64,000 bases of DNA from Escherichia coli (GTDB lineage Bacteria > Pseudomonadota > Gammaproteobacteria > Enterobacterales > Enterobacteriaceae). A program made the translations under genes and the position numbers. Below, piece after piece: positions 55,659-55,925 of this stretch. Below the pieces are notes generated by a model. The model did not search any database and had not been told where the DNA came from. It was given only the letters and a program-made list of their open reading frames with translations. Position 1 is the first letter of the stretch, and every line of letters starts with the position of its first letter. The stretch is taken from the NCBI RefSeq assembly GCF_050920415.1, contig NZ_CP169309.1; one strand, given 5' to 3'.

Positions 55659-55925
55659 ATGGAATGGCTGGTCAAAAAATCGTGCTGCAATAAACAAGTT
55701 AACAGACATGTACTTATGCTCTGCGATGCTGGCGGCGCGATAAAAATGATCGCCGAAGTGAAGAGTGACTTCACCGTGAAAGTAGGGGATTTACTTTCAC
55801 CTTTGCAGAATGCGCTTTACTGTATTAATCGTGAAAAGCTACATACGGTGAAAATCCTCTCGGCAAGCAGCTACAGCCCCGATGAGTGGGAACGGCAGTG
55901 TCAATCGGCTGGGAAAACTCAGTAA
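55659..55925 (+). CDS. pmrD: signal transduction connector protein PmrD
   Basis: 88 aa from [34 protein letters not shown]; track ORF extends 10 codons upstream. Confidence 0.88.

Follow-up and report, generated by a model that had tools for sequence, protein, structure and literature searches.

The genes pmrD and arnF of Escherichia coli are a convergent overlapping pair: two real coding sequences that lie on opposite strands and share bases at their 3' ends. The explanation that we favor, and that we consider likely as a whole, is that this is an ordinary, annotated convergent overlap, brought about by neutral drift of the stop codons, with Rho-dependent or leaky 3' ends of the two transcripts and with a small effect on expression, if any. 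The overlap is not a statistical oddity; it is already annotated, and the idea of antisense transcription at this junction, in the form of an excludon, is already in print, so that neither is new. The window of our analysis is a stretch of 64,000 nucleotides from the E. coli contig NZ_CP169309.1, and its features that bear on the junction are collected in Table 1.

The overlapping gene pair

We have re-read the open reading frames and both stop codons at 55919-55925, and the coordinates and the 7-bp overlap of the original prediction are exact. The surrounding segment, from 55.4 to 56.4 kb, contains menE and pmrD on the plus strand, followed by arnF, arnE and arnT on the minus strand, i.e. the end of the arn operon, in which the annotated gene order is arnB-C-A-D-T-E-F, with arnF directly after arnE. 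Around the overlap, pmrD reads ACT (T87), CAG (Q88) and TAA on the plus strand, while arnF reads CGT (R127), TAC (Y128) and TGA on the minus strand; the shared bases are the third base of T87, the Q88 codon and the stop of pmrD, and the third base of R127, the Y128 codon and the stop of arnF.

Table 1. Positions of the features discussed in the text, in window coordinates.
Feature	Position	Strand	Details and evidence
menE-pmrD intergenic region, i.e. pmrD promoter region	55547..55658	+	sequence, pattern search
pmrD coding sequence, 88 aa, PhoP-activated connector protein	55659..55925	+	ATG at 55659, stop TAA at 55923-55925; ORF, NCBIfam, PDB, annotated by PGAP in a near-identical strain
Extended stem-loop of the pmrD-sense RNA, with ATGAGTGGG/CCCACTCAT as its closing stem	55882..55969	+	-29.8 kcal/mol, z -2.55 against shuffles
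Weak hairpin GCTGGG-AAAA-CTCAGT over the pmrD stop, then T-rich AACGTTGTTTTGT	55908..55936	+	scan, fold, alignment; only terminator-like candidate for pmrD
Tail-to-tail overlap of the coding sequences, 7 bp	55919..55925	both	TCAGTAA on the plus strand, stops included
arnF coding sequence, 128 aa, flippase subunit, last gene of arnBCADTEF	55919..56305	-	ATG at 56305, stop TGA at 55921..55919; ORF, NCBIfam, annotation
arnBCADTEF operon (arnB at 62130-63269), transcription converging on pmrD	55919..63269	-	annotation of a near-identical strain; annotated locus coordinate + 31961, 4 mismatches against the window
Palindrome CTTCCCGGCTGGGAAG inside arnF (codons LPGWEG), then GAACTTTTTC on the minus strand	56011..56026	-	terminator-like look; arnF stop about 90 nt further on
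PmrA(BasR)-box-like direct repeat CTTAAGGTTAAGTTAAT upstream of arnB	63368..63384	-	1 mismatch to YTTAAK-N5-YTTAAK

The identities of the two genes are supported by matches to curated families: PmrD matches the NCBIfam model NF011994 (Pfam PF11183) with 171.7 bits against a cutoff of 96, along positions 1-85 of the 85-position profile, and aligns with the E. coli PmrD entries of the PDB (2jso, 88 aa, and 4hn7; E=4e-54), while ArnF matches NF002816 with 138.9 bits against a cutoff of 99; the equivalog matches of the neighboring MenE and ArnE are also above their curated cutoffs. The co-directional genes of the arn operon overlap as well, by 1 bp (arnE/arnF at 56305, arnD/arnT and arnC/arnA) or by 4 bp (arnT/arnE at 56637-56640 and arnA/arnD). 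Overlaps of 1 or 4 bp between co-directional genes are the usual pattern of translational coupling.

The same 7-bp overlap is annotated by PGAP in strain MFDS1022581, which is 100% identical across this kilobase, and occurs again in K-12 MG1655 (b2258/b2259), where arnF is located at 2372892..2373278 and pmrD at 2373272..2373538; three more E. coli lineages, at 93-95% identity, are also annotated with it, so that no sampled lineage of the species departs from it, and the E. coli records with this annotation number 6 in total. The pmrD/arnF locus is present in 5419 of the 5426 complete E. coli genomes, and at least 3205 of the 5426 share an identical stretch of 52 nt across the junction, a count that is a lower bound because megablast requires an exact word of 28 nt.

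That the overlap is an artefact of annotation, with one stop or reading frame being wrong and the true genes lying apart, has a vanishingly small probability. We have found nothing in favor of it, and ORF callers may misplace starts, but not stops. Each of the two ORFs closes at its first in-frame stop, both proteins match full-length equivalog models, and the structure of E. coli PmrD has been solved as 88 residues. Frameshifting or readthrough alone could shift the ends of the proteins, and nothing points to either. A different stop of pmrD or arnF in the true annotation would have removed the overlap; PGAP and the curated K-12 annotation agree with each other and give stops identical to the predicted ones. 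The stops are unambiguous, and thus no alternative stop can abolish the overlap.

The men/pmrD segment of this strain (menC and menE at 53200-55600, and the region 55400-56400) is strongly diverged from K-12, many bins having 5-15 mismatches in every 100 bp; over 55400-56400, an identity of at least 99% is reached in 1 of the 5426 complete genomes, the rest being at 90-99%, which suggests a rare or recombinant allele block. Among the few complete genomes without the pmrD/arn locus is that of E. coli 720632 (NZ_CP025842.1; locus L021, 4145-4945): IS1A is located right after menE, and pmrD and the entire arnBCADTEF operon are absent, giving the order menE-IS1-ais. Elsewhere in the window, elaD (about 45259-46481; a deubiquitinase of the ElaD/SseL family) corresponds to a frameshifted pseudogene in the annotation of the near-identical strain MFDS1022581.

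The junction in related genera

In order to compare the junction between genera, PmrD relatives were aligned and the stop-to-stop distance was measured in 18 loci, taken from contigs of one genome per species. The distance is +7 in E. coli, Escherichia sp. and E. albertii, where the shared bases are TCAGTAA or TCAGTAG; in E. albertii, the TAG stop of pmrD changes the R127 codon of arnF from CGT to the synonymous CGC. In Salmonella enterica subsp. arizonae and diarizonae, and in one further S. enterica assembly, the distance is +6, with the shared bases TCATGA, and in eleven Citrobacter loci it is 0, -2, -3 or -9, i.e. the genes do not overlap. In Escherichia, Salmonella and Citrobacter alike, the spacer is all but missing, and it is this feature that is conserved, not the 7-bp overlap itself.

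In the protein alignments, the last invariant residues are W77 of PmrD and P122 of ArnF, and the matches to the family profiles end before the C-terminus, by 3 residues in PmrD and by 6 residues in ArnF; the overlapped codons fall in variable, non-conserved C-terminal tails of both proteins. The C-terminus of PmrD had been proposed as a point of comparison across strains, and here Q is the last residue of all nine Escherichia-type sequences of 88 aa; the tail and the junction differ across genera. The terminal Q fits a constraint from the opposite strand, the CA of the last codon being part of the arnF stop.

Departures from the usual arrangement occur at several loci. In E. coli SCPM-O-B-8794, a GTDB species representative (locus L005, 2471-3200), the arn operon is deleted and only the last 22 codons of arnF are left before ais; a 10-bp deletion at the junction gives PmrD the tail ...CKSANNVVLQ* and an overlap of 23 bp (+23) with the arnF remnant. 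In Intestinirhabdus alba (locus L018, 1011-3614), the locus reads menE-pmrD-ais and the arn genes are missing from it, so that pmrD is kept without its convergent neighbor. More distant PmrD homologues have MarR/MFS genes or Wzz as neighbors instead of arnF. It has been reported that pmrD was acquired horizontally, and that its context is the same in Citrobacter, Salmonella and Escherichia, but not in Klebsiella (PMC3140997); our own context checks agree with that report.

Two of the loci call for a remark on the assemblies. The metagenome-assembled genome "Citrobacter sp. HRGM_Genome_0066" holds an E. coli-type pmrD/arnF contig (93-97% protein identity, +7) and, on another contig, a Citrobacter-type copy (-3) (loci L003 and L009), and the bin is probably a mixture. 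In the S. enterica subsp. arizonae locus (L014, 2756-3126), the arnF match is divided into three tblastn segments, which suggests a frameshift or an assembly error.

Terminators and RNA structure at the junction

No credible intrinsic terminator and no conserved hairpin are located at the pmrD/arnF junction. In a consensus scan of positions 55000-57000, no terminator-like site was found on the minus strand downstream of the arnF stop. A bidirectional intrinsic terminator, i.e. a G+C-rich hairpin with A- and T-tracts between the genes, is absent from the junction: there is no spacer, the hairpin that does occur is weak, and the fold of the junction has a z of -0.94, against z values of -3.45 to -3.81 at 3 of the 4 other convergent spacers of the window, which form strong hairpins. 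A search of 55000-57000 against Rfam gave no family at E<=1, the sole match being a spurious snoRNA. Over most 80-nt windows of both 3' extensions, the C/G ratio is above 1, with values of 1.1-1.8, which is permissive for Rho, but not diagnostic.

Several candidate structures have been considered and rejected. The sole plus-strand candidate of the scan is a hairpin of 6 pairs, 3 of them GC, that lies over the pmrD stop and is followed by AACGTTGTTT; its stem is intact in this strain (GCTGGG/CTCAGT) owing to a T variant, while K-12 and most lineages have an A-A mismatch (GCAGGG), and it is not conserved in E. albertii, which has led us to discard it as a terminator. The palindrome inside arnF, with a perfect stem of 6 bp (CTTCCCAGCCGGGAAG), is kept in all Escherichia, including E. 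albertii; as a terminator it is set aside, since the conserved LPGWEG codons explain the palindrome and the T-run is 4 nt off the stem. The extended stem-loop on the pmrD-sense RNA relies on G-U pairs, and the minus strand does not fold (z +0.5); folding of the alignment gave a covariation term of +0.44, the E. coli lineages retain the outer stem, with G-U pairs, while in E. albertii it is broken, and the structure varies between strains. We do not retain it as a functional RNA element: covariation gives it no support, and its arms are codons for conserved residues (D-E-W of pmrD and M-S-G of arnF), so that constraint on the proteins explains the conservation of the arms.

Strong structures are seen at other convergent junctions of the window: the nuoN/yfbM spacer (about 43250-43280) contains a strong intrinsic-terminator hairpin, AAAGCCGCCGAC...GTCGGCGGTTTTTTT (z -3.45), which the simple terminator scan missed, and the yfbS/yfbR spacer (about 23700-23740) contains a long GC-rich palindrome (z -3.8), which resembles a REP element.

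Transcription across the junction

The original prediction held that the two transcripts are necessarily antisense at their 3' ends, with no room for a terminator in between, and that this may allow transcriptional interference. Its geometric part stands: there is no intergenic DNA, no terminator can sit between the genes, and RNAs that contain the whole pmrD and the whole arnF ORF are therefore complementary over at least 7 nt. With neither a spacer nor a credible terminator at the junction, each mRNA is expected to end inside the opposite gene. In published data on transcript ends and duplexes, pmrD, arnF and menE have no entry in the supplementary files consulted of the E. coli Term-seq paper, and pmrD and arnF do not occur in 10 supplementary files of the p19 dsRNA study, where their expression was probably low and the files may be incomplete. 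Interference, the functional part, is a possibility, which is discussed below.

In the explanation that we favor, pmrD, reported to be horizontally acquired, is located between menE and the last arn gene without a spacer. Both proteins would end in short, unconstrained tails, which would have let the stop positions drift slightly among genera, so that in Escherichia they came to overlap by 7 bp. The pmrD mRNA would have its 3' end inside antisense arnF, and the polycistronic arn mRNA inside antisense pmrD or beyond. Termination would most likely be Rho-dependent, on untranslated C-over-G extensions, where Rho could act once the ribosomes leave at the stops; alternatively, it may be leaky or limited by collision. 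Whenever both promoters fire, the mRNAs would be complementary at their 3' ends, as they are in the majority of convergent operons in E. coli. Established routes to an effect on expression are the collision of RNA polymerases and cleavage by RNase III (PMC12288877; bioRxiv 10.1101/2022.10.23.513370), but the effect of this overlap is probably small. Three observations weigh against a purely neutral reading: the persistence of a near-zero spacer in three genera could reflect selection, both genes are part of one regulatory circuit, so that a functional link suggests itself more readily than between two random genes, and the plus-strand stem-loop is moderately better than its shuffles.

The known regulation of the two genes is as follows: PhoP activates pmrD, PmrD stabilises phosphorylated PmrA, and phosphorylated PmrA activates arn (PMC3140997, PMC2565834), and from this co-induction of pmrD and arn is predicted. 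In Salmonella, PmrA represses the transcription of pmrD, forming a feedback loop (PMC3140997, PMC2565834), which the authors of one of these papers regard as absent in E. coli (PMC3140997); in Klebsiella, the surroundings of pmrD on the chromosome differ, and PmrA does not repress it (PMC3140997, PMC2565834).

Within the E. coli pmrD promoter region, GAGTTTATCTGTTAATCT at 55601-55618 resembles the Salmonella sequence TTGTTTATCCGTTGATGT, a PhoP-box-like repeat, as compared by eye and not by a computed alignment. A pattern search with the arnB promoter as positive control gave no match to the PmrA box in positions 55547-55658 at up to 2 mismatches, a weak result, given that the total of matches in the window is what is expected by chance; for the same reason, the box upstream of arnB has been assigned by its position. 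The same kind of search finds a PmrA-box-like repeat, ATTAATGTTAGGTTAAT, in the Salmonella pmrD promoter (locus L032, 1899-1915). Repression of pmrD in Salmonella reportedly acts through a PmrA site in this promoter, a result that is ascribed to Kato et al. 2003.

One may then ask whether the junction works as a functional excludon, in which polymerases from the arnB promoter run via arnF into antisense pmrD and lower pmrD expression because they meet oncoming polymerases head-on and/or because RNase III cuts the duplex, as a PmrA-dependent brake, while strong PhoP-driven transcription of pmrD conversely trims arnE and arnF. The overlap is obligatory from the geometry, no minus-strand terminator follows the arnF stop, the near-zero spacer is kept in three genera, and a published excludon list includes arnF-pmrD, there noted as functionally related (PMC12288877). 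The contrast between a Salmonella promoter with a PmrA-box-like repeat and an E. coli promoter with none at up to 2 mismatches, and the Klebsiella gene, which has both another context and no PmrA repression, point in the same direction. Against these stand the absence of both genes from the dsRNA and Term-seq supplementary files consulted, the attribution of the Salmonella feedback to repression of pmrD transcription by PmrA together with the statement that E. coli lacks this loop (PMC3140997, PMC2565834), the exact geometry of the junction, which is not conserved, the persistence of pmrD where arn is deleted, and the expected co-induction of the two genes, which are not alternatives, unlike those of classical excludons; on balance, we regard a functional excludon as unlikely. 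The more specific claim, that in Escherichia arn read-through into antisense pmrD provides a PmrA-dependent negative feedback, and that the near-zero spacing in three genera has been kept by selection for this coupling, is decidedly unlikely, because the geometry varies from genus to genus, pmrD is also kept where arn is missing, the genes would be co-induced and overlapping 3' ends are the norm. If convergent arn transcription did damp pmrD, a cis-antisense arm would be added to the textbook two-component connector circuit behind resistance to polymyxin and colistin, and such damping might help to explain the differences in PmrD connector activity between strains and species; even so, this would be a modest refinement of known biology and no new principle. 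As it stands, the overlap matters little, being present in the reference annotation and having dozens of counterparts in E. coli.

A terminator of the collision type, located in the coding ends themselves, would account for both 3' ends in another way: the extended stem-loop, or an inner hairpin at 55892-55939, would pause polymerases in both directions, and head-on and trailing collisions would set the ends (the model of Ju, Wang and Liu). In its published form, the model covers hundreds of convergent E. coli genes and presupposes a stem-loop in the region of overlap (bioRxiv 10.1101/2022.10.23.513370), and the plus-strand fold, with its energy of -29.8 kcal/mol, its z of -2.55 and an outer stem kept in E. 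coli lineages, could be taken for one. The minus strand, however, has no fold, the structure varies between strains and is broken in E. albertii with no support from covariation, its arms are accounted for by conserved codons, and both genes are normally expressed at low levels, whereas collisions need frequent firing; we therefore consider a collision-type terminator very improbable.

Comparison with known overlaps

Overlaps of this kind are common in E. coli. One genome has 663 overlapping pairs of adjacent coding sequences, of which 75 are convergent (PMC4161906), and complementary 3' ends have been described in 276 of 370 convergent operon pairs (75%), the overlap averaging 286 nt (Conway et al. 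2014, PMC4161252). Within the window there are 5 convergent junctions, and pmrD/arnF alone overlaps, the spacers of the other 4 being 47, 32, 58 and 62 nt (from about 0.2 to 27.8 kb, an annotated coordinate has to be lowered by 1 to obtain that of the window). The pair arnF-pmrD is also named among the 165 convergent excludons of MG1655 that were obtained with ExcludonFinder from RNA-seq data (NAR 2025; PMC12288877), where presence in at least 50% of 58 MG1655 transcriptomes was required for listing, and the authors single it out as a pair that works in one pathway. Overlapping coding sequences satisfy this coverage criterion almost automatically, and the listing thus documents overlap, not exclusion.

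The pair resembles the convergent operons of Conway et al. 2014 in that read-through gives complementary 3' ends, but most of those operons have a partial terminator in the spacer (PMC4161252), while pmrD/arnF has no spacer. Classical excludons have long antisense overlaps of untranslated regions and a demonstrated reciprocal expression; for arnF-pmrD the overlap alone is documented, and the genes are expected to be co-induced and not mutually exclusive. The PmrA-pmrD feedback of Salmonella, as attributed to Kato et al. 2003 in PMC3140997 and PMC2565834, concerns the same circuit and genes that are likewise placed tail to tail, with a 6-bp overlap, and PmrA activity lowers pmrD expression there; in those papers, the effect is attributed to repression of pmrD transcription by PmrA and not to convergent transcription. 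The Salmonella promoter has a PmrA-box-like repeat, for which the E. coli promoter gives no match. The collision-driven terminators of Ju et al. 2019, as cited by Wang et al. (bioRxiv 10.1101/2022.10.23.513370), share with pmrD/arnF a convergent arrangement with no canonical intrinsic terminator; the model, as given there, requires a stem-loop in the overlap and well-defined 3' ends, whereas the stem-loop at pmrD/arnF is strand-asymmetric and has no covariation support. The bacterial convergent overlapping pairs in general lie on opposite strands, share a few bases at their 3' ends and have stop codons that have moved into variable tails: from these, pmrD/arnF shows no material difference, and it is notable only in that both of its genes belong to the PhoP-PmrD-PmrA-arn circuit.
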